A stretch of 56,512 nucleotides of DNA, filler included, from Dirinaria sp. TL-2023a (taxonomy: Eukaryota), in NCBI GenBank assembly GCA_051941275.1. It is 3 parts of 3 records of this genome, joined end to end, with 100 filler letters (N's around TTAATTAATTAA, not from the genome) between each part and the next. Parts side by side here need not be neighbours in the genome. Positions count along the whole stretch, not along the records: positions 1 to 18,797 come from JAVEBF010000367.1; 2 more parts are not named here. The stretch is one strand, 5' to 3'. The notes beneath the pieces are model-generated. The model ran no database searches, was not told the origin of the DNA, and saw only the letters and a list, made by a program, of their open reading frames with translations. Position numbers and translations under genes: made by a program. Positions 7,175-51,685 of the stretch are shown here, one piece after another (the stretch's first letter is position 1; every line of letters begins with the position of its first letter).

Positions 7175-8193
7175 TAGGTTGCACTGTTACGGCAGCAATG
7201 TATCGATCAGGCTGGTCCAACCTCCGATTCGTTTAGATTAATGAAACCTCAAAAGCATTCGAAGCGCCAGTAGAGAACCTCATATGATCAAAGTCACCGA
7301 GTCCAAAATATGAATGACTAGAAACATAAGAGTTCCAAATTCGCCAGGCAAGGGTTTTCACTCTCCTGACTCAGGACCGATTGTACTCTTGGCCGGACAA
7401 GCTCAAGTGTAGGCTCTGCGAGCCGATCGGTGTTTGTGGTGGCCAGATCATCCCCTGAGATTACCGCCCAGTGTTGAAATGTGGTAGGGGTTTTATGGTG
7501 ATTTTCTGGCATCTACCGATAGCCTGTTTATATATACTTACATAATACAAATAGATAACAGTGTTATGTTTGCGTACATTTATCGTCGTCAAGGATATAT
7601 GAAAATGAGGTATGCCAACCCTTTCATCGTTCTATCTTTCCCGATACTGTGACTTAAGGTTTGCAGTAATCCGTGAGGCTTTTCTCTTTTTTTTTTTGCT
7701 CACTCTTAGTGGCTAAGTACAGTGAGATTCGTAAAATGCTTAAGTAGGTACTCTAATCTGCTCTCTTACATCGAATCTACCCGTGTTGTCCTATCTACAT
7801 ACAGATATGAATACGTTCGAGCTGTATGCTTCATTCACTCTATAACAGTGTCGAATTAGAATTCTAGGGAGAAAAGAACGTTCGAGCTCCAGATTCCGAA
7901 GAAAGCCTGGACGAGTGAGTCGGAAATGACCTTTCAAAAAAAAAAACGAGGACTGCACGATGCAGAACCCCTCACCTATTTCTTCTTCCTCAGAGATCTT
8001 GGTCTTTTTAAACATGCGCTTTACTTGAAATGCTGGTACGTTCAAAAAGAAGAGATAACTAATTTTGCACCAGAAATACGGAGCAATCACGATCGCCCGA
8101 GGTTCTGACATTGTATAGCTTCTCTAAGATCTGAACCAAGATGGAAATAACTCATTATCGTGCTGGCATACCGACGCCCAGAAAGAAATGCTT

Positions 8194-9700
8194 TTAATTC
8201 GACTCTGCATCCCCCCTTTCCTTCTCCCTCTCCCTCCTGATCAGCGCCTTCTGCTTCGTCTGGATTGGCTTCCACAGCGGCCCCAACAGCGCTGCCCCAA
8301 CCAACAACGTAACTCCACTGAACAGCTGCAGACCCAAAAAATGTCCATGCGTCGTATCCGAAATTGCTGCTGCGATGGGCGTCCCCACCAGGATCGCAAA
8401 CGCCGTCGAACCCCACATCATGCCCATTCTGGTCCCTATGACCTCGGGGGAAGGACACACGAGCGGCAGCACCGCGGGTGAAAAAACCGTCAACGGCCCT
8501 GAAATGATACCATAGAACACGATGAAGGTGATGAAGCCGCCTAGATCGTTGACTGCGGGCCAGGTCAGGCAGAGGATGGCGGCGGCGCTGCTGCAGAGTG
8601 TCCAGGGGAGCATTATCAATGTGCGCGTGGAGATTGCGGAGCCGAGGAGTCTGGCTACCAGGGATACGGCGCTGTAGAGGACCATTAAATCTATGGAAAA
8701 GGTTTGCGATGTTGGGGGCTTCAAAGCGGTTTCGGCAAACACCGGGATGAAGAACACGGGTGTGAAATAGCCTAGGAATCTGAAAAATCCGCCGATGCAG
8801 AGGATCAGGAAGGGGAATTCCTTGCATCCGTTCACGTCGATTAGGGCTCTTCGTCTTCCGCTGACGTGGATAGAGCGGCAGAGCAACATGGGGATAGCGA
8901 TTGAAAATACGCAAAGACCTATTAGACCCATGGTCCGCGTCGTCCATGCGAAGCCAACTCGCTGAATCATTCTCGAGAAGACGAGATTGAAGGTGATACC
9001 GCCTTTTACAATGAATTGAGTGTCAGTTCCCCTCTCCCTCACACATGAGAGCCAGGAAGTGGGTGCGCCATCAAAAAATACAAGGAGTAGAAAACACAGA
9101 CACGCACCGATGCTTATTCCCGAGCCTACTAAAGCTATCGCAACAGCTCTCCTCGTAGTAAAAGACGCAGCAACGAGCGCATAGTTCGGAACATGAACCA
9201 TCCCGCTTCCTAACCCCGTGCAGATCCCCTGCGCAAGCAGGACCTGATAGTACTCTGTCGCCAAGCTAGTCATCATGAATCCAAAGATGGTGAGAAACCC
9301 GCCCAAAAACAGCAGCGTGCGATGGTATCCCAGATCGAAAACGGGGCCAGCGAAGATCCCCGTAGCCATGAGTAAGAAGCTTTGGGTCGTGCCTATCCAT
9401 GTGATTGAGGAGGCGCTGTACGTTGGCAGCATCTTCAGCTGGTAATAGGATTGGAAAGCGCCGAAGGAGAGGAGGAAGCCCCTATAAAAAACAAGGCAAG
9501 AAAATGTGAGTAGGTTGGTTTTTTTCAAACTTCTTTTTTGACACCTTGCAGTAGGGAAAGAAGTCTGACCATGTAACGCAGCATGTGAGAAAGGCACCTA
9601 GAACTTGCAACCAGGCTCTCCAGCCTCCATTTGGCGGCGCTTTTGGTACGGAAGTCGCATCTTGATCGCTCTTCTGCGTAAGAGCTTTATCCTCCGCCAT
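8194..9700 (-). CDS. MFS transporter, monocarboxylate porter (Mch-like) family; 3 exons (9700-9570, 9481-9108, 9002-8194)
   Basis: PPNGGWRAWLQVLGAFL N-terminal motif; SFGAFQSYY, SITWIGT, LAQGICTGLGSG and GTRMGM motifs; about 12 hydrophobic segments. Confidence 0.88.
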
Positions 9701-10600: not shown

Positions 10601-11252
10601 TATTCATTTCGCAACCTATTCCAAGACACGATTGAAGCTGTCCACGAATTGAGATAAGGTTTTGACCCTAGAGGGATTATTTACCCTAAATGTTTACCGA
10701 GCCGAGCTAGCCCGATGCACGCTAACCGTATTTGGTAATAGACATCTTGGCGTCCCTCGGTGTGGCCGAGGGGCCCGATTGCCTTATCCACTGGGCCGCC
10801 CACATCCGGCCTTACTCGGCTTCCTCATCTTGATACCACCATTCTGGGCAGGCTTGCCGCTGAAGCTTGACCAGGTCGCGTTATCCGCGACCGATGTTGT
10901 CTCCAGGTCTGTCTAGTGAAAAGCTTGCAGGCGGTATTGGCCGCACCTTGTATCCCGCCAAGGATTTGACTACTTCTTGACTCGTCCAATATTCAACGTG
11001 ATAGGCCTCGCCACCCGACATGGTCGCTTTGGCGCCTGCCTCATTGGCCCTGACACAGCTTAAGTAACCCGCTCCAGTTATTGTCTATGTTTTTGAGGGA
11101 TTCGACCAATATGGAGTTTGAGGTGGCGTACACAAGTTCAATTGGCGCGTGGCCGTCCTTCGTAATCTCAGTGCAAGATACAATAATTCATAAAAGCATG
11201 TTGTCCACCATTATTGTAGGGAGTTGATCTTGGCACTCCACCGACCGACTAC

Positions 11253-14200
11253 ATGTCTCTCATTCAGCGTCTTCAGCAGCTGGCTTCTCGACAGCCTGAT
11301 GAGGTTCTGTATGAATGGTTCGAGAGAAGGTCCGACGGAGACGTCATCATCAAGCACTCTTACTCGTATCGTCAAGCCTGGGATCGTGTGTCTGTTCTTG
11401 CCCATCATCTCATCCATAACGAGAATGTCAAGCCGCGCGATCGGATCCTGCTCTGCTATCCGCCTTGTCTTGATTTTCTATTCGCATTCTTAGCATGTAT
11501 ACTTGCCAATGTGATACCAGTCCCAGCATATCCGCCAAATCCCCAGAATCTCCAGGCGACTATACCTACGTTTACGAGGATCAAGATCCTAGCCAATGCT
11601 AGGATAGTACTAACAAATACACAATATAACAGGTGGACTGCGTTGAATCTGTTTGTGAAATGGCCTTCAGATCTCAAGTGGGTCTGTACAGACCCTATAT
11701 TCAAGGCGCACAGAGATCTACCGAGCGATTATGAATGGCAGCAGGCGGATCTTAGCAACACCGCCTTTCTCCAGTTCACAAGTGGATCGACAGGTAACCC
11801 CAAAGGTGTCATGATCAGTCACCGCGCCCTTTGGGCAAGCTTTCGTGCTATGACAGTGTGCGAAGAATATCGAACATCTCCAAAGCACTCGAACGAAGAG
11901 CTGGCAATAACACAGAGCAGTCCCCAGTTCAAAGTAGTCTCCTGGCTTCCTTTGTATCACGATTTTGGTCTCATTTTTGCCGCTCTGCTACCCATCTACC
12001 GGGCTGGAACTGCAATTCTTTGCAGTCCTCTCGATTTCATCGCACAACCGCTTAGCTGGCTTCGAGCTCTGTCAAAGTTCAGAGCAACTGCGACCTGTGC
12101 ACCAAATTTTGCTTTTGACCTTGTGGTAAGGAGATGGCAAAACACTGTGTCACATCAGAGACCGAAGATCGATCTGTCGAGCATGCGATTCGTACCCTGC
12201 GGAGGCGAGATTATCCGTGCGAAGACAATGACGGATTTTCGAGACACCTTTAAGCCTTGTGGTTTCAATGGACAGTCCTTGTGCCTAAGCTATGGTTTTG
12301 CCGAATGTACTGTCGCCGCGTGCGCTGAGTATTCAAACAATTTGGTCCACAGCAAAACCAACCCGGCACTCCTCTCTTGCGGAAGCAATTTCCACCGCGG
12401 CGGACTGCTTGTGGCGATCATCAAGCAATGGCAGGGGATCAGTGATCATCCGGAGCTCCACGCCGTGAGACCTGAGGTTGCTGAAGATGGAGAGATTGGT
12501 CAGATTATTGTCACAGGAAACCCCCTTTCATCGGGTTACTGGCCTGTGGGTGATACGCCTGAGAGAGATCCTCAGATATTCATTCCCAAAGCTGAACTTC
12601 CATCTGCCGTGAGAGAGATGGCGAATTGCCACCCCGAGATCGACTCTGATTTCTGGTTTGCTACAGGGGATCTTGGTCTACTCGAAGAAGGCCACCTCTA
12701 CATTACTGGACGTATCAAAGAAGTCATCGTTATTCGTGGACGCAATTATATGGCTTCAGACATTGAACATACGGTTTCGACCTCAACCCCCGAGGTCCGG
12801 CCAGGGTGCATCGCAGCGGTGGCTGTCTCTGGGCCAGAGTCTTCAACGGAGAATGCGCTCATTCTCTGCGAGGTACGGTCACTCTCGGCCGACCAAGAGG
12901 CAAAGAATGCCATAGAGAACATTCGGTGTTGTATTCGTGGGTCTCACGGTATCAATGTATCGATAGCATTGCTGGAAAAAGGTGCATTGCCTAAGACAAG
13001 TTCTGGAAAGCTACAAAGACTCAAAGCAGCAGAGATGTGGACGGCAGGATCTTTCAAACATGTGGCGTTCGACCCAATCAGCCAACAATCCCCCTTATCT
13101 GATTCAAAAGTGGCCGAAGTGCCCCAAGGTTCGGCCAATCCCAGTTTAGAATCGACTGGTCCATCGCAAGTTCCAAACTTGGAGCCAGAAGCGATGGCAT
13201 CAGACTCCGAGTGTTTGGCGTGGGACTATACGGCCACCTACCAAGACCGGTTCTCCGCGCTTTATGCTCAGATTCATCGGATCATCAGTAACCATCTTGC
13301 TTCTCTCGAGGAGGAGGAGGAGGCAGATGACCGTGGTAATCTGGTTGATATAAACACAGAATGGCGCCAATTAGGTCTTGATAGCCTTGGTGCTGTTCTT
13401 ATCATGCAAGAGCTGCAAGACGAAGCCAACAAGTTCTTGAAAACGTTTTCCACTCCAATTATTCTGTCGCCTAATCTTCTCTTTGAGCATCAAAACGTCA
13501 AGGCTCTTATTGTTCATCTGATCTCTTTACAAAGTGTCGAGAACGAAAAAGTGAGCGAAGGGCCAGAGGTCGCGAACAAAACGCCCAAGATGCAAGCTAA
13601 ACCTCAAGAGCAAGAGAACCAGAGAGTGGACTTTGAACACGCCTTTGAACTACCACAATCGACTCCTCCCTCGGGCTATCTCTTTTTCGCTGCTGCGCAA
13701 GCTATATGGACGTGTTGTATGTGGTCTGCAATTGTTTACGCTGCTAGCTTCGCTTTGTTCTTTGTCAATGCGAAAGACTGGATAGTAATCACTATTCTGA
13801 TACCCGTGGTACACTTCTGCTTCCTCTTATCTCTCGCTCTAGCCACGATAGTTCTGAAGAAATCTATCATCGGCGCTTATCAGCCAGGTTGTCAACCCCA
13901 ATATGGTTCCTATCATTTGAGATACTGGATGGTTGAGTCAGCGGTCAATGTTACTGGGATTCTTGGCCTGAATGCCTTACATAACACCAAAGCGTATGAG
14001 ACGTATCTCGAGCTTCTTGGTGTTAACTTGTCGCCTGGTGCAAGTATCAATACATCCATCAATACTGCTTTCGACCTTCTCACTGTAGGACCAGACGCTA
14101 TGATCGAACGTAATGCGACCATAGTTTGTCATAGCTACCAGAGCGGATGTTTATTCCAGAATCGAGTTGATATAGGTCAGCTGGCAATTGTTGAACAACG

Positions 14201-17200
14201 TGCCGTGATACAGTCGTCTGCTACAGTCTGGAACACTACTGAGACGTCCCGCCAACCAGGCCCGGCCACTCATGCTATTCCACCAAGCCCGTATGTGCAA
14301 GGCGACCATACTGTCTTGCGACATGGCTCCAGAGAGCCAGTCCCGATACAGCATGACGGTGTGTCTGCTCCTAGTAGTTTGAGAACAGCAGCAGAAGTAC
14401 CGTTGTTGCGTTGGGCATACTGCATAGGTCTTTTTTGGCTTACTGATGCGGCCGTCTTACTGGCTGCTCTGGCATCCATCAAAATTACAGGCTTTATAAA
14501 GGCAAGGTCTGGAGATAGGGTGCCAGTACTTGACCTTGGGTACGATCAAGTAGTCTATAGGAACTACGCCTTTACATTCGCCTTCGGTCCACATATAATC
14601 TTCCCTAACATTTTTCTCTTATCTCAAGGGGCAGTTTGGGGACTAAGCGAAGATTTGCTCAACCGAAACTCAATGGTCTTTGAAAAATACAAACAGTCAT
14701 CATCCTCTGTTAAGGGTTTCAGCCAGATATTGTTGACTCTGGTGGTAATGTACCTGGCTTGGGCGACGGCCATGGCAGCTATCACACTAGCCGTGCGGCA
14801 CCTTTTCGTGCCTCCTCTGAGGGATGGCGATATTCTAAAACAGCATTCCTACAGCGCAGCGACTCGGCAACTCTACTCAAATTTGGTCAGGCGACTACAT
14901 TCTCTGACTTTCTTTCTTACCACTGGTAAGCCACAATTCTCCTTATGAGGGTATTGTAAGCAAGTCTGACTAACAGTTCGTATTATTTTACTAGGTACTA
15001 GCCTTTCTTCTACCTTCTACACTTTGAGTGGAGCAAAAATTGGCCGCAGAGTTCTCTTCGCGCTCACCGAGCCCATCGTAGAGCCTAGCCTACTTCGCAT
15101 CGACGACGGCTGCTTTGTAGGTGATTTCAGCCATATAAGCAATTTCTGTGCGATTTCCTCAAAGTATGGTGGTGCTCATCGAGCTTCGCTAGTCCATCTA
15201 GGAAAAGGAAGCTTGGTTGGGATGAATGCAGTAATTCAAGCGAACCTCAAAAACCCTGACCCTGAAAGCCGAACCTCTATGCGCCTACAGCTACTCGAGA
15301 AATGCATCGTTGGTGCGAATTCTACATTAGACCAGGACCAAGCACTATCGATGGCACAATCTGTCACCGAAGATGGACAAGGAGTGTCTATCTTTGGACG
15401 ACATACCTTTCAGCAAAAAGTCGATGATTTACCTGCACTTCCGGTTTGGTCTCTTTGGTGGTCGTTAACTTACTATGCTCTTTGGCCGACCTATATTCTG
15501 CCCGCTTTACTCTCGTGGTTTATTATTTCAACGCTCCCTTCCCTGCTGTTGACAACATACCTTTGTGATACATTAGGTTATAGAATTACCATGGCTCTTT
15601 CTGGACCTCTATATACTGTCTATGCCATCAGCACATTAGCTCAGCTGGTCATTGCCAAATGGGTTTTAATTTTCAGATTTACGGAGAGAGTCTATAAGAT
15701 CGATTCTCTCTTCTTTTTAAGGCGGTTAGCGTATTCGCATTGCCTTGACTTTGCTGCGGTATTCTGCCTCGATATAATGAGGGGTACGCCATTCTTGCCG
15801 CTGGTCTACAAAATTCTTGGGGCTCATATTGGCTCTCGGGTCCATCTCGACACATTGGCTATCACAGAGCCAGACCTCTGCGAAATCCAGAACAACTGCT
15901 CTATTAATTCTTCAGCTGTCCTTTTTGGACATAGTCTCGACCGAGGTCAATTCTCTCAAGCGCCATTGAAAGTTGGCTCTGGATCCACCATGGACAATCA
16001 TTCTTTGCTTCTTCTGGGTAGCTCAGTTGGCAAGTACACTCACCTGAAGCATTCTTCTGCGACATTAATGCATAGTGTCATTTCCGGCTCTTCCCAGTAC
16101 AGCGGAGTACCGCCTCAACTGCAACAAACATCCGCATCTTTGGCAGACGGATATCGAGAATGGAAGAAAAGGTCTCAGAAATGCAGTGACCGAAGGGATT
16201 GTGGTGCTTCACACCATAGAACCCAAATATCCCCACCGTCGCTCACTTCCACGCCTACTTCGATTGGCTCGCCATCTGCCACGGTCCCACAGATGAAATC
16301 GAGAACAAGCTCCCAGCCTGTTATCACATCGGATAGTGCTGCAAGTCGTGATATCACAGAGGATGGCACACAACCAGCTCATCTACAGGATCCAGATCGA
16401 GAGAAGCTACCTGTCTTTAAGTCTCAGTATAAAGGGGCGAAACCAGAATATCGCGACCCGCAGGCTCTAGACCAGCCAAAGAGTAATACTAACATCACGT
16501 CTTTGATGGAAGTGTTTTCTGCGATGCGAGATAAAGCACAGACGCCGCTGAAGGCTATCGATCGGGCTTTCGAAGAGGAAGTAAAATTTTGGCAAGAGCA
16601 GTTCTCTACTAAGCTTAGCGAGCTGGGGAATGCCACATCTGAGCTCAAGAATACGTTGCTAGATCTTGGACGGCAGACAGCGTCTACGGAGGATTTGGAG
16701 CTGCTTGTCAACGATGTCCGCAATATGCCTGATAGTGGTGATACCTCCATTGCAAAGGCGCAAGATGCGTCTTTGACTGATTGGGCGGAACATCGTCAGC
16801 AGCTTTCCGTACGCGTTGAGAAAATGAAAACCCCGAAGCCTTACGAAGATCACTCAGTGTACGCTGACACAATCCGACAAGACTACGGTATCGTTGCTCT
16901 GGATCTGCTGTGCCAGGGAGAGCTTGATTGGATGATTTGGCAGAATTTCGCTTGGACGGTACGCATTAACGATGCGCAAAACTTTTGCTTCTGCTAAAAT
17001 ATAAGTTCAGATACTTGCTTTCCAAGATCCGCCGACAATCGCATTACTGGCTTCTTCAAGGCGTCTATTTAATCGCTCTGTGAACAGAATAACAGGTAAG
17101 AAGCTCCAAATTAAAACAACTAGTATTTCAATTTTAGCTTGACCATCTAATAGCTGTCGATGCGTTGATCTTGCCCACCATGGTGTGGGGTCGTCTGTCA

Positions 17201-18360
17201 AAACGAGGCCAGGTGAGTTAAATGCAGAGCTTTTCTTCTCTGATCAGGCAATGCTGACTCCGCATTTGACTCAGCTTGGTGACAGCCGGATGAATACTAT
17301 ACACGGGAGATATGCACATACTGCTAGCGGCATCAAATGCCTCTGGATGTCCATCCTAGATTCCTACGAGACCTACAGGTCACGAATGGCGTTGCCTCCT
17401 TGGAGCGATTTAGAGTATAACTCATTCTACTGGGTCATCCGAGATCACTGCGTCGCAATGAATGTCCCATCGACCGATCTTGCACCACACTGGCAGGAAG
17501 AGCTACACAAACATCGTTCACGCATTGCGAGCATGAAATGGCGGAAATGGCCTGTCGCAACGGCTATTGTGGGGAATACGCTCGAAGATTACCTCAGCAG
17601 ATTTCCCGCAGATGCGCGAAGGCCATTAAGACAGCTGCTTGCTGTGGCGTGCCCTGAGGAAATGCTAGATGGCATGGGATATCGACCAATCTATCCAAGC
17701 GAGAATGAATTTAGAGAGTTGAGGGATGCAATACAGGGCTTCTACCACGAGGAGGCGGCCCGTCAGCGATATCCACATTCGCTCAGCTCCCACATGGAGA
17801 TCGGAGGTTGGAAATCTCGAGCAGAGCAAATTGGTCCGAGTGAGCGAGGCCCCAGCATGCCACATGTGCTTACAGACTCCGCCACTGCTACGGCCATGAA
17901 AGAAGCTGGGCAGACCGTATCAGTTGGTTCATGTCCTTTCGGTGGCAACGACACTTCCGTCACACATTCTCCCAGTCCCGCATCACCAAACCTTGAGAGC
18001 GCAGTCGCGAGACTCATGAAAGTCCATCATAACTTCGGCCATAACATCGGCCAGCGCGCGGCAATGACGGTCGAGGATGTGAAGATTCCTGAGGACTTAA
18101 TCGAAGTCACCGAGGAGGAGGTGGCGCTACATTGCTCCCCAGAGCATGGCTACTGGAGTATTGTCGGCGCGTACGTCTACGACACGACTTTATCGATCAT
18201 GGACGATGTACATCCGGGCGGCAAAGCGATCCTACAAAAATATGGTGGCAAGAGAGCAACGGCTGCATTCCGAGCGCACTCGGAGGACGCGAGGATTGTA
18301 GCATGTAACTTCATCGTGGCGAAGCTCAAGGGAAGCCAAGGAGATCTCAGGAACGATTGA
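11253..18360 (+). CDS. NRPS-like multidomain protein (~2288 aa): FAAL - carrier (T) - Pls-like triple TM/left-handed beta-helix module - MpaB/DUF2236-like oxygenase - cytochrome b5; exons 11253-14925, 14995-16958, 17011-17095, 17154-17212, 17275-18360
   Basis: FAAL motifs AFLQFTSGSTGNPKGVMISH, VSWLPLYHDFGLI, APNFAFDL, TGDLG, GRIKEVIVIRGRNY and LPKTSSGKLQR. Carrier motif LGLDSL (Ser at 13383). Three TM + LGAxIG beta-helix repeats. SKRGQ|LGDSRMNTIHGRY oxygenase-like motif. b5 motifs HPGG and FRAHS. Four GT..AG introns give 6867 nt, a multiple of 3 with no internal stop. Confidence 0.85.
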
Positions 18361-18797: not shown

Positions 18798-18897
18798 NNN
18801 NNNNNNNNNNNNNNNNNNNNNNNNNNNNNNNNNNNNNNNNNTTAATTAATTAANNNNNNNNNNNNNNNNNNNNNNNNNNNNNNNNNNNNNNNNNNNN
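18798..18897. other. Assembly gap / artificial contig linker
   Basis: 44 N + TTAATTAATTAA (stop codons in all six frames) + 44 N. Confidence 0.97.
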
Positions 18898-20752
18898 TCG
18901 TAGTAGTAGTAGAAGGACAGGGTCCCGTTTTGCGGAACTTAGCCACAAAGAACCCATCCACGTTATATTTATGCGGGTAGAATCTCCTCGTCAGACTTAA
19001 GCTGTCGTGGAAATGTTTGCCCTGAAACGTGCGGAACCCAGGCACGCCGAACGTGAGGCCCGTTTCTACAAGCTTCGCGTTCGGTCGCCGCGTCAGCGCG
19101 TAGTGCACCACTTGCTCGTTTTCCTCCACGGTCACGGAGCACGTGGAGTATATTACGAAACCGCCTGTTTTGGAGGCGTGGTCCACGCTGTCGATGGCGG
19201 CGAGCAGGAGCTGTTTCTGGAGGTAGGGCAGGCGCTGGAAGTCCGATTCTGTTTTACTTGTTTTTACAGATGGGTCTTTGGCGATGACGCCCGTGCCGCT
19301 GCAGGGGGCGTCGAGCAGCACGCGGTCGAAGCCGCCGATCGGTTTGGGGAAGTGCCGCGCGTCGTGGCTGCAGATGACCGTGTTGCGCGCGCCGAGCCGG
19401 TGGATGTTGCCGACCAACGCCTTGGAGCGCGCTTTGTTGCTGTCGTTGGCGAAGATGCACCCCGTGTTCTTCATCAGGGCCGCCATGTACGTCGTTTTCC
19501 CGCCCGGCGCGGCCGCCATGTCCAGGATCCGCTCGTTTTCCTGCGGTGCGAGTGCCATTACTGGCAGGAAGGATGATGCGGATTGGATGATGTATTTTCC
19601 TGAGAGGTATTCGGGGGTTGCGCCGAGAGGGACGGCGGATTCGAAAACTTGGAGGCCGACTTTCGACCAGGCGCCTACGGGCTCGAGGACGACGCCACGG
19701 TTGATGAGGGATGAGGCTAGTGTCCGCCGCGAGGTGCGGAGGGTGTTTGTGCGTAGGACCAGTGGTCGAGGAGATTCGTTTGCTTCGAAGAAGGCGAAGG
19801 CTTCGGAGGGAGAAAATAGCGAGAGGAGCTTTTGCGCGAGGAAGGGCGAGTAGCCGTAGTAGAGCGATATGTCTTTCTCGAGCTGAGACGTGTAGTCGGC
19901 GCGGGATCGGGGAGCAGATGATAATGCTTTAGGGTTGGAGAGGACACGGACTGTGTCGGTGATACGTGTTCGGAGGAGCTGTAGATCAGGTGCAAGGCGG
20001 GTACGGATTTGATTGGGGTCAGTCTCGGAATCAGACAGTAGGTCGGAATGGGTCTCGATGTTGGTTTGCAAAGCGTTCTCTTCGAGCTCCGCTTGAGCTG
20101 CAGAGGCATCGGCTGCTTGTTGCTTGGAGAGCCTTTGAGAGAGGCCTTCGATGTTTGCTGCGGTGAGGGTTTCTTCAGCGTCTGAGTCGTCTTCGTCTTC
20201 GGAGAACATCGCGGTAGGGTTCTGCTCATCGGAATCATATACCGAAGGACTGGAATCAGCATATTCTCCATCTGCATCCACGCCATTGCTTGTATTCTCG
20301 ATCGCTTTTTCTGCAGCTGTCGCTGAAGGGACATCTGCCGCAGTCTTTTCTGCGTCATCTTCAGAACTGTCTAGGAGCGCTCCAGACATGAAGCCATCTG
20401 ACACGCTCTCATCGTCATGCCCCAGCAGATCTGCCGCATCGTCATCGGAGCTCTCGTCTATGGGCTGCCGCTGCTTGTTTCGATTTTCTTTTCCCCGATT
20501 CCGTCCTGTTCCATTTTGACTAGCCTTGGCGTTGACGAAATTGCCCTTGGGGCCATGCCTCAATGCTGAATTCTTCACACCGTTGCGACTCGTATTCGAG
20601 GTTCTCTGGACATTGAACTCCCCGTTGGCCTTCCTCTTCTTCCCTCGACCATCTTGGAATTCGCCCGCTTTGCGTTTCTGGCGAGAGGGGGCATTGATCT
20701 CGTCTAATGAGGGCGGCGGACCCTGCTTCTTCATCCGACGCCCTACACCCAT
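18898..20752 (-). CDS. NOP2: 25S rRNA cytosine-C5 methyltransferase Nop2, 3' end cut by the gap
   Basis: MGVGRRMKKQGPP start; ILDMAAAPGGKTT, FDRVLLDAPCSGTG, IYSTCS and RFYPHKYNVDGFFVAKF are NOL1/NOP2 motifs. Confidence 0.96.
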
Positions 20753-21031
20753 TGCTGCTACCTCTGCACTTTGTAAATACCATGAATGAGGTGCCGGAAC
20801 ACCTTACATGCAGTCCAGGGACTTTGAACTTTCATCCATGTGCTGATAATCCCTAGCGTGATCTGATAACGTTCCTTAGCCGAGGCCTTGGCATACCATG
20901 TGCTCATCAACCATCGTCGAGAGATCCATGTAGTTCAGACTCAAAGATAGACATAACAGCTTGGCTCCCAGTCTCTCAGCGACCATCGTAGCTTGGCGAA
21001 ATAGTATTTGTTCCTTTGATCACAATCCACG

Positions 21032-49211: not shown

Positions 49212-51685
49212 ATGCTACGGGTCTTTGCAGCAGCATTTCTGTTCATCGCACAGCAAGCTGGGGCGCAGATCACCCGCAACGGTTGGACTGTGACAGCAGA
49301 TAGCTTGTGAGTTGATTTCCACTACTTCTGCCAATTCTTTTTTAGCAGTAGCCATGAAATCTTAAGAGCTGGTGGACTAGCTTAATCATCCCCCAAATAT
49401 TGATGACGTTCGAGAGAGAAAAGCTGACCAAGCGAACAACAAGTCAACCGGGCAATGAAGTAGTTAACGCTATTGATGGTAACACGGGAACTATCTGGCA
49501 TACTGAATTTAATCCGGTCAATGCACCACTCCCTCATAATATTACGATTGACATGAAACAATCTTACAATGTGAATGCTGTAAGCTATTTGCCGCGCCAG
49601 GATGGTAATAGCAACGGCAACATTGGACAGCATCAAATTGTGTTAAGCTCTGACGGAAAAACTTGGAGCTCTCCTGTGGTAATTGGAAGATATCTGGATG
49701 ACAATACCCTAAAGAAAAGTTCTTTCGTGACTAAGCCTGCTCGCTATGTTCGGATCATCGCGCTCACAGAGGCTGGCAATCGCGGACCGTGGACAAGTGT
49801 GGCAGAATTAAATGTTTTCGCAGCATCCAGCTATACGGCACCACCAATTAGCCTCGGAAGATGGGGTCCAACTGTGGATTTTCCTATTGCTCCGGCAGCT
49901 GCAGCAATCGAGCATGATACTGGAAAGCTGCTCGGCTGGTCATCATTTGCAGCAAATACATTCTCCGGAGGCCCTGGTGGAATGACGCAAACAATAACAT
50001 ACGATCCTGCGTCTCAAGCGGTCTCTCAGCGGACTGTTACCAATACACAACACGACATGTTCTGCCCTGGTCTCTCCTTGGATGCTAATGGGCGTCCAGT
50101 GGTCACCGGGGGTAACAACGCTGAAAAGACAAGCAGTAAGTGATACCTTAATACTCCTGATTTCGTTTCCTTGGGGACTGCAAAGACCTATAAGACTGGT
50201 CTTGCAAGTGCTAACCCTGAATCTCATTTCACATGATGGCAATACTAAGAAATGTTGCGCTAATTTCGTGGTTCTCAAGTATACGATCCTTCCTCGGACA
50301 CTTGGATCGCAGCGGCAAATATGCAGATATCGCGCGGTTACCAGTCATCAGCTACCTGCTCAGACGGGCGTGTCTTTACTATCGGTGGCTCGTGGAGCGG
50401 GGGCGAAGGTGGTAAAAATGGCGAAATTTACAGCCCGGCAGCAAACACGTGGACTCTTCTTCCAGGTTGCCCTGTCGCACCATTGCTCACAAATGACGCT
50501 CAAGGTGTGTATCGACAAGATAACCATGCTTGGTTATTCGGATGGAAGAACGGCTCAGTCTTCCAGGCGGGGCCCAGTAAAGCCATGAATTGGTATTCAA
50601 CAACCGGCAGTGGAGGCCAGAAGGGCGCAGGTCTACGAGCTACGGACACAGATTCGATGTGCGGCAATGCGGTCATGTACGACGCTACTAATGGCAAGAT
50701 TTTGACCGTCGGTGGCTCGCCAAATTACCAGAATTCTAATGCTACTACGAATGCTCATGTCATTTCCATTGGCACACCCAACAGCATACCTTCGGTGGCA
50801 ACCATCCAGTCAATGTCCTATCCGCGCGCTTTTGGTAACGCAGTGGCGCTTCCCGACGGTGTAAGTATTCCTAGTTCATCGTCCCCCTTCATGGCTTCGT
50901 GGTGGGTTCGCAACCATGTTTTAGGAGTCCAAGCCTCCTTCCACACGAAGGCTTAGCTCTTAATTTCATCTGCAAAAATCAAATGCTAATTTTGCATCCT
51001 TCTTTAGCAAGTTTTCATCACGGGAGGTCAGGTAAGCACCCGATCGCCAAAGGGTAGTGAGGGCATTAGTTGTCCCATACACCGTAGTGATTTGCGTCCA
51101 TTCAGAGGGTTCACTGCTAACTATGTAAAACATTAGACATATGCTGTTCCTTTCTCAGACGATACATCTGTCCTTGCGGCTGAAATTTGGAATCCAACGA
51201 CTTCGAAGTTTACAACTGTGAATCCTATGGCAATACCTCGAGTCTATCACAGTTGGGCTCTACTCATGCCCGATGCCACTGTATATAATGGCGGCGGTGG
51301 ACTGTGTGGTAGCTGCACGACCAACCATTTTGATGCCGAAATTTTCAGCCCGCCTTATCTCTTCAAGAGCGATGGAACGCTAGCTACGCGGCCAAAGATA
51401 TCATCAGTGTCGGCTACCACCGTAACTGTCGGCACGAAGCTGACGGTGAAGACGGACTCGGCCATCACAAGCTTTTCGCTCATCCGCTACGGATCAGCGA
51501 CCCACACGGTTAATACGGACCAACGGCGGATACCGTTGACTCCAACAGCATCTGGCACCAATACTTACATCATCACGATCCCAAATGACGCTGGTATCGC
51601 GCTGCCAGGCTCGTGGATGCTTTTTGCCCTCAATCCCGCTGGAGTACCCAGTGTGGCGAAAACAATTTTGATCAAGAGCAGTTGA
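49212..51685 (+). CDS. Secreted galactose oxidase-type copper radical oxidase (CAZy AA5_2) with N-terminal CBM32/F5-8; exons 49212-49306, 49444-50135, 50280-50860, 51008-51031, 51137-51685
   Basis: Signal peptide MLRVFAAAFLFIAQQAGA; CBM32 AIDGNTGTIWHT...YLPRQDG; active-site motifs HDMFCPG (Cys), RGYQSS (Tyr), GGSWSG (Trp), RVYHS (Tyr/His) and SATHTVN (His). Confidence 0.93.

Follow-up and report, generated by a model that had tools for sequence, protein, structure and literature searches.

Analysis of the window, a stretch of 56,512 nucleotides from Dirinaria sp. TL-2023a along which all positions are counted, revealed on the plus strand what is very probably a real gene, whose product combines a fatty-acid–AMP ligase (FAAL) domain, a carrier domain, a Pls-like membrane domain, an MpaB-like haem domain and cytochrome b5. 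The coding sequence is distributed over three stop-to-stop open reading frames (ORFs) of this strand (11220–14948, 14970–16997 and 17143–18360), and the proposal that they are joined through four introns into one frame of 6867 nt held: the spliced frame comprises 2288 codons with a single stop, at its end. Downstream of a stop at 11217–11219, the earliest ATG in the first ORF is at 11253. The host of this intron-split gene is an ascomycete, probably a lichen-forming one, given that the only named orthologue is from a lichen fungus. The genes flanking the locus are housekeeping genes, not a biosynthetic cluster.

Exon 1 (11253–14925; codons 1–1224 plus one base) encodes the FAAL and carrier domains, transmembrane segments (TM) 1–4, repeat 1 of the Pls-like domain and the beginning of its repeat 2, and is followed by intron 1 (14926–14994; 69 nt, GTAAGC...CTAAC...TAG, phase 1). 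Exon 2 (14995–16958) supplies the rest of repeat 2, TM5–6, repeat 3, a linker of ~260 aa and the start of the MpaB-like domain, which continues across intron 2 (16959–17010; 52 nt, GTACGC...GCTAA...CAG), exon 3 (17011–17095; 85 nt, with the conserved Arg1905), intron 3 (17096–17153; 58 nt, GTAAGA...CTAAT AG, phase 1), exon 4 (17154–17212; 59 nt) and intron 4 (17213–17274; 62 nt, GTGAGT...GCTGAC...CAG). Exon 5 (17275–18360) encodes the remainder of that domain, a linker with a Cys-Pro motif and cytochrome b5, and ends with the stop at 18358–18360. All four introns are bounded by GT and AG, and each contains a branch-site-like CTAAC, GCTAA, CTAAT or GCTGAC 10–25 nt upstream of the AG. The motif NRITAVD straddles the exon 3/4 junction, and removal of intron 1 gives the spacing GT-x6-Y-x-L-x-GA-x-IG, as in repeat 3 of the same protein.

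The splice model was also backed by an end-to-end alignment of the spliced protein (residues 1–2288) with residues 1–2323 of CAF9936782.1 (P0137), which is annotated as hypothetical in the lichen fungus Imshaugia aleurites and is the only named orthologue, at 66.1% identity. This alignment is unbroken at junctions 2, 3 and 4; at junction 1 the Imshaugia model has 25 additional residues, probably a retained intron. ORFs from elsewhere gave a similar picture: a 160-aa ORF of another assembly (P0255) is continuous over junctions 2, 3 and 4, a further ORF (P0254) is continuous over junction 4, and at the site of junction 1 one ORF (P0141) stops and another (P0256) begins. In the unspliced reading, in-frame stops occur at 14946–14948 and 16995–16997, as would be expected if the fusion were a modelling artefact, consisting of a FAAL–carrier–Pls-like gene up to ~16997 and a separate MpaB–b5 gene, or if the locus were a decaying pseudogene. 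However, repeat 3 of the Pls-like domain, the linker and the beginning of the stretch aligned with a protist protein (P0261, see below) all lie within the single ORF of exon 2, and the same is true of P0256 in another species; together with the continuity of P0255, the joining of both parts in the Imshaugia annotation, and 6867 nt free of frame defects in which domains are more conserved than linkers, this makes either alternative extremely unlikely. Identity to Imshaugia was 67–83% in the domain cores (LbH1 102/125, LbH3 114/144, MpaB-like 215/263, b5 58/70), the MpaB-like domain being among the best-conserved regions, and 40–48% in four of the linkers (35/87, 19/45, 30/62 and 46/97). The synthetase gene is under purifying selection, as read from the higher identity of the domain cores than of the linkers.

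The adenylation domain (11316–13058, plus strand) consists of an AMP-binding part (residues 22–430; Pfam E 2.6e-51) and a DIP2-like C-terminal subdomain (residues 489–602; E 1.5e-07), and all five of the ANL core motifs sought were found in it (TSGSTGNPKG at residue 176, YGFAE at 347, GDLG at 472, GRIKE at 486 and SSGK at 583). The top NCBIfam model was a fatty-acid–AMP ligase, matched over its full length (residues 2–603, E 3.7e-85), and the best 18 chains in a PDB search were FAALs or FAAL-like loading domains (E 4e-72 to 9e-34), including FadD23, FadD32, FadD28, 3pbk and 3kxw. The carrier, or thiolation, domain (13344–13511, plus strand; residues 698–753) contains GLDSL at 13374–13388, in which Ser711 is the presumed phosphopantetheine serine and which aligns with the carrier serine of plant and bacterial proteins; Pfam PP-binding scored 20.3 bits (E 6.6e-4), just below the cut-off of 20.8. 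These HMM and PDB matches bear out the FAAL and carrier calls of the original prediction. It is improbable that the substrate is instead an aromatic, isoprenoid-derived or amino acid, in which case the enzyme would not be lipid-modifying. Such a substrate would fit the diversity of FAAL-like domains, whose phylogenetic placement is described in the available text of FAALPred (PMC12820801) as uncorrelated with activated chain length, and the FAAL HMM scores, all of which are below the family cut-offs (e.g., 286 vs 775 bits); on the other hand, FAAL models and structures outscored those of amino-acid and aryl ligases by 40–60 orders of magnitude in E-value, with CoA-ligase chains (4CL and FACL) matching at only ~1e-12, and the C-terminal subdomain matched the FAAL/DIP2-type PF23024, not PF13193.

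Downstream of the carrier lies a homologue of the Pls/PosA-type terminal domain (13680–16112, plus strand, with intron 1 inside), composed of six TM helices in three pairs and three repeats. The Pls/PosA family consists of cationic homo-poly-amino-acid synthetases, such as Pls, the epsilon-poly-L-lysine synthetase of Streptomyces albulus, and PosA, the delta-poly-L-ornithine synthetase of Acinetobacter baumannii; Epls of Epichloe is reportedly a fungal member. The TM pairs were placed by a simple hydropathy scan at residues 810–838/844–870, 1058–1084/1159–1186 and 1392–1414/1433–1453, a scan that leaves an extra hydrophobic stretch between TM3 and TM4 unresolved, and behind each pair lies a left-handed-beta-helix-like repeat (residues ~884–995, 1226–1345 and 1490–1597). 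The repeats align with one another and carry a His at the equivalent position in all three (960, 1286 and 1537); that of repeat 3 is one of six nearly invariant columns in the 21-row alignment. The alignment of the Pls-like domain includes 12 Pls-like and 5 plant proteins. TIGR02353 matched both exon 1 (E 2.1e-20, 72.6 bits) and exon 2 (E 5e-28, 97.9 bits) and scored 158 bits on the Imshaugia protein, so that the triple TM/beta-helix Pls-like module that had been predicted was recovered. Since these scores are far below the cut-off of 423.1 bits, and a bacterial member scores 578.8, the fungal domain is only distantly related and may work by different chemistry.

This distance bears on the idea that the protein is an iterative polymerase, in which a bifunctional hydroxy, amino or oxo fatty acid monomer, which the haem domain makes or trims, undergoes repeated Pls-like head-to-side-chain condensation, as lysine does in Pls, to yield an oligo- or polyester or a polyamide that is secreted. 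The complete scaffold of six TM helices and three repeats is retained, the nucleophile could be made by the oxidoreductases that are fused in the fungal protein and its plant and protist relatives, and the characterised Pls/PosA members are, according to the accessible part of PMC10522769, homopolymer synthetases whose acceptor is the free monomer or the polymer. Against this, not only are the TIGR02353 scores low, but the fungal domain also fell into a group separate from Pls/PosA in a quick tree, and the position occupied by His in repeat 1 is Tyr or Trp in the bacterial proteins, indicating that the acceptor site differs; we regard polymerisation as unlikely.

The linker after repeat 3 leads into a divergent MpaB/Lcp/TAO-type (DUF2236) domain (16887–17847, plus strand; residues ~1856–2118), spanning introns 2–4. 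MpaB' belongs to the mycophenolic acid pathway, and Lcp is the latex-clearing protein. PF09995 in Pfam gave no match in the Imshaugia protein or in its 340-aa C-terminal part, and a profile of the fungal domains alone matched nothing meaningful in the PDB. The assignment was reached through the protist protein P0261, the sole distant match among 1.84 billion proteins (phmmer E 1.6e-4), which itself matches PF09995 (E 8.7e-11) and PDB 8s1j (E 2.2e-4); with a profile from which P0261 was left out, hhalign gave a probability of 94.8% for the MpaB-like assignment. An AlphaFold model of the C-terminal 480 aa had a mean pLDDT of 35.5, too low for use. Two of three near-invariant DUF2236 residues are kept, Arg1905 and the haem His, His1937 (in NTIHGRY, 17293–17313), at a spacing equal to that in P0261, and the third, a Thr, is replaced by Val1909. 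Of the five-domain architecture predicted originally, the FAAL, carrier, Pls-like and b5 domains each have HMM or PDB matches behind them, and the MpaB-like domain, which PF09995 did not match, is supported only indirectly, via the bridging protist protein. Its earlier name "heme oxygenase" is a misnomer, because MpaB and Lcp are haem-dependent oxygenases, not haem-degrading enzymes.

The cytochrome b5 domain (18109–18288, plus strand; residues 2206–2265) was called by Pfam above the cut-off (E 2.4e-09; 37.5 vs 23.7 bits), cytochromes b5 in the PDB matched at E 1.3e-07, and both expected motifs were found, namely HPGG at 18211–18222 and the second His in AHSED at 18274–18288, in agreement with the earlier call. 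A conserved Cys-Pro dipeptide, a candidate haem-regulatory motif, sits between the MpaB-like domain and b5. As had been noted, C, KS, TE and R domains are absent from the Pfam matches of both the exons and the Imshaugia protein, and the Pfam/NCBIfam matches and motif positions agree with the predicted domain order and approximate coordinates.

It is possible, and we put it forward tentatively, that the C-terminal domain acts as a catalytic haem oxygenase. The converse, that the DUF2236-like domain has no catalytic role but binds haem or lipid for regulation or docking, or is an inactive relic, with b5 serving another partner in trans such as a desaturase or hydroxylase, appears quite unlikely. 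The conserved Cys-Pro dipeptide and the missing direct match to PF09995 are compatible with it, as is the Val found in place of the Thr in each of the four fungal sequences covering this site. Available sections of PMC6311187 describe functional roles for R164, T168 and H198 of Lcp, with Thr168 conserved in 99.6% of Lcp homologues and only 2% activity left in T168A. Yet the equivalents of the Arg and the proximal His are retained, the domain ranks among the best-conserved regions relative to Imshaugia, and fusion to an electron carrier fits a redox enzyme.

Taken together, we read the protein, with moderate confidence, as a membrane-embedded, NRPS-like single-module FAAL–carrier–Pls-like–haem–b5 enzyme of 2288 aa. 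Acyl loading followed by Pls-type transfer is favoured slightly less firmly. The FAAL would adenylate a fatty or other lipophilic carboxylic acid, which would be passed as a thioester to the phosphopantetheine on Ser711, bypassing CoA. The Pls-like domain may form a pseudo-trimeric acyltransferase of three packed beta-helix repeats on three TM hairpins and, with His1537 of repeat 3 as the likely base, would hand the carrier-bound acyl group over to a nucleophile (amine or hydroxyl) at the membrane; if this transfer also releases the product, it would explain why no C, TE or R domain is present. The haem domain could oxidise the acyl chain or the acceptor, at an alkene or at some other position, acting before loading, on the tethered lipid or on the released one, with the fused b5 as the putative electron source that (re-)reduces its iron. 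Given an even number of TM helices, all soluble domains would face the same, cytosolic side. The membrane-bound assembly line envisaged originally, in which a fatty acyl chain is activated, oxygenated or cleaved, and finally ligated or polymerised, is a reasonable reading.

Our literature search found no paper describing this domain combination; in their available portions, one FAAL survey (PMC8460268) does not mention a transmembrane or hexapeptide domain and another (PMC12820801) mentions neither "hexapeptide" nor "Pls". The earlier statement that no characterised protein combines these five domains stands insofar as none was found, but an uncharacterised orthologue is deposited from Imshaugia. 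An analogous architecture is already in print, that of the land-plant HemY/amine oxidase–FAAL–catalase proteins, function not known, that appear in the part of Patil et al. 2021 eLife (PMC8460268) available.

Bacterial FAAL loading domains of NRPS/PKS lines (FadD32, FadD28 and FadD23; 7r7f, 3kxw and 3pbk) share 31–34% identity over the whole adenylation domain, the core motifs and a carrier directly downstream, but their lines continue with a KS or C domain, whereas the fungal FAAL is followed by a Pls-like membrane transferase. The single module of Pls/PosA, with adenylation, carrier and six-TM/three-repeat membrane domains and without C, TE or R domain, is common with the fungal protein, but its loading domain is an amino-acid A domain instead of a FAAL, and the fungal Pls-like domain is not terminal, since ~690 residues come after it. 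In PMC10522769, as far as available, the PosA terminal domain is modelled as six helices that carry three beta-helices, whose packing resembles that of sugar-nucleotide acyltransferases, and the PosA A and T domains by themselves make no polymer. The remote homology of the haem domain to MpaB', Lcp and trans-anethole oxygenase (8s1j; DUF2236/PF09995), drawn via P0261, extends to the Arg and proximal His; these known enzymes are stand-alone, whereas the fungal domain is fused to a synthetase and b5. Excerpts of the respective reports describe MpaB' as ER-bound and cutting a C=C of a lipid-like side chain (bioRxiv 10.1101/524025) and Lcp as cleaving polyisoprene (PMC6311187).

In the quick tree, the fungal Pls-like domain grouped with those of five FAAL proteins from land plants and of one ACS-like protist protein (P0131), and the fused oxidoreductase differs among them. 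The plant proteins, for example from Calypogeia fissa (P0142 and P0143), Cryptomeria japonica (XP_057823986.2) and Rehmannia glutinosa (KAK6138364.1), share with the fungal protein the FAAL–carrier–Pls-like core, fusion to a haem oxidoreductase, the repeat-1 His and the side of the tree split; the two Calypogeia proteins are 24–26% identical to the Imshaugia protein over about half of its length, and those of Rehmannia and Cryptomeria match 19–25% of its length. Unlike the fungal protein, they lack the MpaB-like domain and b5 and instead have an N-terminal flavin amine-oxidase/HemY-like domain and a catalase-like haem domain, matched between repeats 2 and 3 in Calypogeia and Cryptomeria and in a less clear order in Rehmannia. 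P0131, whose cluster includes a member from a marine eukaryote transcriptome, also has a C-terminal oxidoreductase, preceded by an A domain resembling acyl-CoA ligases, a carrier and a Pls-like domain. The last of these fell on the fungal side of the tree split, a placement made unsure by its very long branch (2.54). In P0131 the A domain is ACS/FACL-like where the fungal one is a FAAL, and the oxidoreductase is an FMN-dependent alpha-hydroxy-acid oxidase where the fungal protein has the MpaB-like domain and b5.

Three consecutive stop-to-stop ORFs, all on the plus strand of this eukaryotic window (11220-14948, 14970-16997 and 17143-18360), had been joined in the original prediction into one frame through four canonical introns, and this gene model was confirmed in silico as a single intron-split gene. 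Joining the exons at 11253-14925, 14995-16958, 17011-17095, 17154-17212 and 17275-18360 gave 6867 nt, or 2288 codons with a lone terminal stop; all four proposed introns (69, 52, 58 and 62 nt) exhibited GT..AG ends and a fungal-type branch-site motif closely 5′ of the AG. Pairwise alignment of the spliced protein (1-2288) with P0137 (1-2323; CAF9936782.1, ‘hypothetical protein IMSHALPRED_010888’), its ortholog from the lichen-forming Imshaugia aleurites, ran from end to end at 66.1% identity and was unbroken at junctions 2, 3 and 4. Ortholog ORFs from other assemblies crossed the same junctions without interruption (P0255 at junctions 2, 3 and 4, P0254 at junction 4), and the intron 1 site coincided with the end of the P0141 ORF and the start of the P0256 ORF, the intron 2 site with the end of the P0256 ORF. 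P0255, a Logan ORF of 160 aa, departs from all orthologs right after MLWMS, past junctions 2-4, which could reflect either a break in the assembly or one more intron in the species concerned. None of the seven opposite-strand and flanking small ORFs had a Pfam match above cut-off, the sole listing reaching 18.8 bits against a cut-off of 27.2.

Junction 1 was the sole junction that differed from the Imshaugia model, which has 25 additional residues there (P0137 residues ~1231-1255). These residues sit exactly at the position of intron 1 in the window and disrupt the internal repeat spacing. Excision of intron 1 generates GT-x6-Y-x-L-x-GA-x-IG, with spacing identical to that in repeat 3 of the same protein; because excision restores this spacing, we took the originally proposed junction 1 as right and consider that the Imshaugia gene model probably retains the intron.

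The N-terminal domain was recognized as an AMP-binding domain by Pfam (residues 22-430, E 2.6e-51), followed by the DIP2/FAAL-type C-terminal subdomain PF23024 at residues 489-602, and all five ANL core motifs were intact (TSGSTGxPKG at 176, YGxAE at 347, GDLG at 472, the GRxK hinge at 486 and the catalytic-Lys SGK at 583). The top NCBIfam model, ‘fatty-acid--AMP ligase’ (E 3.7e-85), aligned through positions 4-575 of its 578 to residues 2-603. Across NCBIfam, FAAL models scored between 4e-85 and 2e-57, whereas the E-value was 2e-32 for the amino-acid adenylation model and no better than 6e-32 for most long-chain fatty-acid-CoA-ligase models; the exception, NF005850, labelled long-chain-fatty-acid--CoA ligase, ranks among the FAAL models at 2.4e-75. 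The scores lay under the equivalog cut-offs, so none of the named FAALs is an ortholog of the domain. Comparison with structures gave the same order: the top 18 PDB chains were FAALs or FAAL-like loading domains (E 4e-72 to 9e-34), led by 7r7f at 4e-72 and followed by 3kxw, FadD23, 3pbk, FadD32 and FadD28, with 4CL at 7e-13 and 4-coumarate and acyl-CoA ligases at about 1e-12. The available text of Patil et al. 2021 (PMC8460268) gives a FAAL-specific insertion or helix and a blocked CoA pocket as the criteria for a FAAL; in a sequence alignment, the region after YGxAE matched the FAAL 7r7f without a large deletion. The FAAL-type assignment held, since FAAL models and structures outranked the CoA-ligase and amino-acid types and the five core motifs are intact. 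Among longer proteins, a homologue search with exon 1 returned no match in architecture, and its results were dominated by bacterial FAAL-NRPS/PKS proteins.

The adenylation domain is followed by the putative carrier that had been proposed from its DSL serine. Its Pfam PP-binding score (PF00550) fell just short of the cut-off (20.3 against 20.8 bits; 18.9 for P0137), and GLDSL (Ser711) is present, in the same alignment position as the carrier serine in plant and bacterial relatives.

The triple TM/beta-helix module, originally likened to the condensing part of Pls, matched the Pls/PosA terminal-domain model TIGR02353 in both exon 1 (residues 824-994, E 2.1e-20, 72.6 bits) and exon 2 (residues 180-372, E 5e-28, 97.9 bits), and P0137 scored 158 bits. 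Hydropathy analysis revealed six peaks in three pairs with a beta-helix-like repeat after each pair, and the three repeats could be aligned to each other as well as to 12 Pls-like proteins. Pls/PosA enzymes are recognised by such a layout, in which a soluble repeat of ~180 aa comes after each of three TM helix pairs. The likeness stood in the TIGR02353 match, the three TM pairs and the three repeats, but the curated cut-off of 423.1 bits was reached neither by the window exons nor by P0137, whereas the bacterial-type protein P0125 passed it with 578.8 bits. In an alignment of 21 rows, including the 12 Pls-like and five plant proteins, the repeat-3 His (His1537 in the window) occupied one of six nearly invariant columns, and a repeat-1 His was common to the fungal and plant proteins, with Tyr or Trp at this position in bacterial-type proteins. 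Between TM3 and TM4, residues ~1095-1125 (window 14424-14810) form a moderately hydrophobic stretch, AFTFAFGPHIIFPNIFLL, under the hydropathy threshold; this stretch could be a re-entrant segment, and the count of six TM helices is not certain. The Pls-like part had no PDB match by sequence. According to the accessible part of the PosA paper (PMC10522769), the PosA domain has been modelled with six bent helices that carry three left-handed beta-helices, whose packing resembles that of trimeric sugar-nucleotide acyltransferases, and the A and T domains of PosA alone made no polymer.

A search with the whole of P0137 gave 232 proteins at E ≤ 0.001 among 7999 candidates. Beyond the Imshaugia protein, orthologs were represented only by fragments from a few assemblies. 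The matches listed, the best 120 of the 232, contained at least five land-plant proteins (from Calypogeia, Cryptomeria and Rehmannia), whose domain order starts with a flavin amine oxidase at the N terminus and continues with the FAAL, the carrier, Pls-like repeats and a catalase-like domain. In Calypogeia and Cryptomeria, the catalase-like match lies between Pls-like repeats 2 and 3, and the third TM pair and repeat come afterwards; in the Rehmannia protein P0160, it begins shortly past repeat 2 and the order is less clear. Plant HemY-FAAL-catalase proteins are listed as of unknown function in the available text of Patil et al. (PMC8460268), in which a term search found neither ‘transmembrane’ nor ‘hexapeptide’ and the Pls-like membrane domain goes unmentioned. 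A fusion from a marine eukaryote transcriptome (P0131/P0266) combines an acyl-CoA-ligase (ACS)-like A domain, a carrier, the Pls-like 6TM domain and an FMN-dependent alpha-hydroxy-acid oxidase. Among the matches listed from these word-limited protein searches, no non-eukaryotic protein combined FAAL with a Pls-like domain. The predicted architecture recurred in the Imshaugia ortholog; the cores of other lineages (plants and the protist) carry different oxidoreductases.

A quick IQ-TREE analysis of the Pls-like domain (19 rows, after merging the two rows of the window and excluding the ortholog ORF P0256) split the tree at a branch with an SH-aLRT of 96, a division that is only an indication (long branches, arbitrary root, no bootstrap, quick search only). 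One group comprised the window, Imshaugia, the five plant proteins, P0128 and the protist fusion P0131. The other contained ten proteins, only two of which are typed, both with amino-acid-type A domains: P0125, by a full scan, and P0127, by its source name in the Pls/PosA family.

The MpaB-like haem oxygenase call required a more indirect route. PF09995, the DUF2236 family of MpaB, Lcp and TAO haem oxygenases, was detected neither in P0137 (E up to 0.1), nor in its 340-aa C-terminal part (E up to 10), nor in exon 5. An exhaustive phmmer search with this 340-aa part against 1.84 billion representatives returned eight proteins: six ortholog fragments (62-90% identity), one low-complexity repeat protein, which we discounted, and one distant protein, P0261, the product of a choanoflagellate transcript (E 1.6e-4, 24% identity over 207 query residues). 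P0261 itself matched PF09995 with 42.7 bits (E 8.7e-11), well over the cut-off of 23, and the trans-anethole oxygenase structure 8s1j at E 2.2e-4, and a fungal-only profile built without it aligned to it over 198 columns with an hhalign probability of 94.8%. A fungal-only profile of the domain gave no meaningful match in the PDB, the ESM Atlas gave no usable match for the MpaB-like part, and an AlphaFold2 model of the C-terminal 480 aa from a 7-row alignment, for which the family would predict a globin-like, all-helical fold that binds haem b, was unusable (mean pLDDT 35.5, pTM 0.19). The available portion of the rubber-oxygenase review (PMC6311187) names R164, T168 and H198 (Lcp K30 numbering) as almost invariant in DUF2236, with H198 the proximal haem ligand, and reports 2% activity left in the Lcp T168A variant. 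Two of these three residues are kept in the window, as Arg1905 and His1937 (NTIHGRY), at an Arg-to-His spacing of 32 in the window and P0261 alike; the Thr equivalent is Val1909, and Val also occupies this position in the other three fungal sequences spanning the site. We read the C-terminal domain as a divergent relative of the MpaB/Lcp/TAO haem oxygenases with a putative activity: remote homology through P0261 and the kept Arg and His speak for the original call, but a direct PF09995 match did not materialize. A desaturase or hydroxylase was rejected for this region, where a hydropathy scan found no TM helices and inspection by eye no HxxHH-type His boxes. A metagenome scan with exon 5 was also set aside, as only one of 55 pattern matches passed tblastn, and this one lies in an unrelated 1106-aa ORF and is a chance match to the motif.

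The linker between the MpaB-like domain and the b5 domain contains a Cys-Pro dipeptide (GSCPF; window 17929-17940, residues 2146-2149), which is kept in three fungal sequences and has an aligned CP in P0261. Cys-Pro dipeptides serve as haem-regulatory motifs; such a role would be putative here.

The cytochrome b5 assignment was sound: PF00173 matched at 37.5 bits against a cut-off of 23.7 (E 2.4e-9), PDB cytochromes b5 matched at E 1.3e-7, and exon 5 retrieved only b5 clusters, at 0.85, from the ESM Atlas. HPGG lies at residue 2240 and a second His, in AHSED, at 2261; we take these two His residues to be the haem ligands. The 258-aa linker ahead of the MpaB-like domain had no Pfam match. Identity to Imshaugia was 67-83% in the domain cores, with 102/125 positions identical in LbH1, 114/144 in LbH3, 215/263 in the MpaB-like domain and 58/70 in b5, and 40-48% in four of the linkers (35/87, 19/45, 30/62 and 46/97). 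Such conservation of cores over linkers would be expected under selection on every domain.

The neighbouring genes are of a housekeeping type (mitochondrial ribosomal proteins, a molybdate transporter, Get5 and a TCP-1 chaperonin), with a Nop2/RsmB-type methyltransferase (18842-20803) convergent with the synthetase gene, around which there was no recognisable biosynthetic cluster. The sole suggestive neighbour is an MFS_1 transporter gene on the minus strand (8087-9597, over two frames; Pfam E 1.4e-17), divergent from the synthetase gene and sharing with it an upstream region of ~1.65 kb; it could encode an exporter of the product or be a mere neighbour. Further along the plus strand, consecutive ORFs at 49358-51685 with F5/8 type C, Kelch and galactose-oxidase-like E-set matches together look like one galactose-oxidase-type gene, apparently intron-split.

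Taken together, the in silico gene model, the identities of four domains, the remote affiliation of the fifth and the kept catalytic motifs are the basis for a proposed mechanism, in which the protein is predicted to work like a Pls-type NRPS-like synthetase. The FAAL would load a fatty or lipophilic acid onto Ser711, and the Pls-like pseudo-trimer would move the acyl group to an amine or hydroxyl nucleophile and so release the product. Since transfer would itself be release, C, TE or R domains would not be needed; none of these, nor a KS domain, was found by Pfam in the window exons or P0137, as originally noted. The b5-fed haem domain would oxidise either the acyl chain or the acceptor. A precedent for the role of b5 in this step would be its action on haem dioxygenases, IDO for instance, which it keeps in the ferrous state. 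Both single and iterative acyl transfer are compatible with the sequence evidence. In fungi, plants and a protist, four different oxidoreductases are fused to the same core, which points to oxidation as a part of the pathway, perhaps to create the nucleophile or an aldehyde. The overall interpretation was supported in part: for the FAAL, carrier, Pls-like and b5 domains by sequence matches, and for the MpaB-like domain by a remote affiliation, with no direct PF09995 match.

A FAAL-fed Pls-type transferase with a haem domain and b5 in cis would imply an undescribed CoA-independent membrane route to an oxidised acyl product, and the plant HemY-FAAL-catalase proteins can now be read as having one catalytic core in common with the fungal gene. 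We regard as rather unlikely, at present, the wider proposal that the gene is the fungal member of an unrecognised, eukaryote-wide membrane class (‘acyl-Pls’) whose enzymes build and export either an oligomer or polymer of oxidised lipids or a surface compound that is acylated. So far, the class would comprise ascomycetes of the lichen type, a marine protist and land plants, the latter ranging from liverworts to seed plants. Its members would have in common the acyl-activating domain, the carrier and the Pls-type 6TM/triple-beta-helix transferase, and the oxidoreductase would differ per lineage. If this proposal were true, the product, for which a polyester built from hydroxy or oxo fatty acids is one example, might contribute to hydrophobic, desiccation-resistant surfaces, and the class would represent a CoA-independent route to extracellular lipid polymers. 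A surface lipid or polymer would bear on the waterproofing of lichens and land plants; with a small acylated metabolite, genome mining would instead gain a new biosynthetic logic, as the gene lies outside any recognisable cluster.

In open-access text, we found no paper on this combination of domains, in line with the original statement that no characterised protein has all five; the supplements of two FAAL surveys may list such architectures. Among the matches listed for lichen acyl-AMP ligases in the open-access literature, no title was relevant. To our knowledge, cationic poly-amino acids are the only products described for Pls-type enzymes. Compared with these enzymes, the window protein has a FAAL-type loading domain, whereas Pls/PosA load a diamino acid through an amino-acid A domain; ~690 residues (linker, MpaB-like domain and b5) follow its Pls-like domain, whereas the Pls domain comes last in the Pls/PosA polypeptide; and it remains below the 423.1 bits that Pls/PosA reach or exceed with TIGR02353. 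Pls/PosA produce a homopolymer, for which free monomer or the polymer itself is the acceptor; for the window enzyme such polymerisation would be putative. Because the HMM cut-off, the amino-acid A domain and the terminal position all failed, we do not file it as a member of Pls/PosA; it is, as predicted from its domains, a new variant of the Pls-type enzyme, namely an acyl-loading, oxygenase-coupled Pls-like synthetase.
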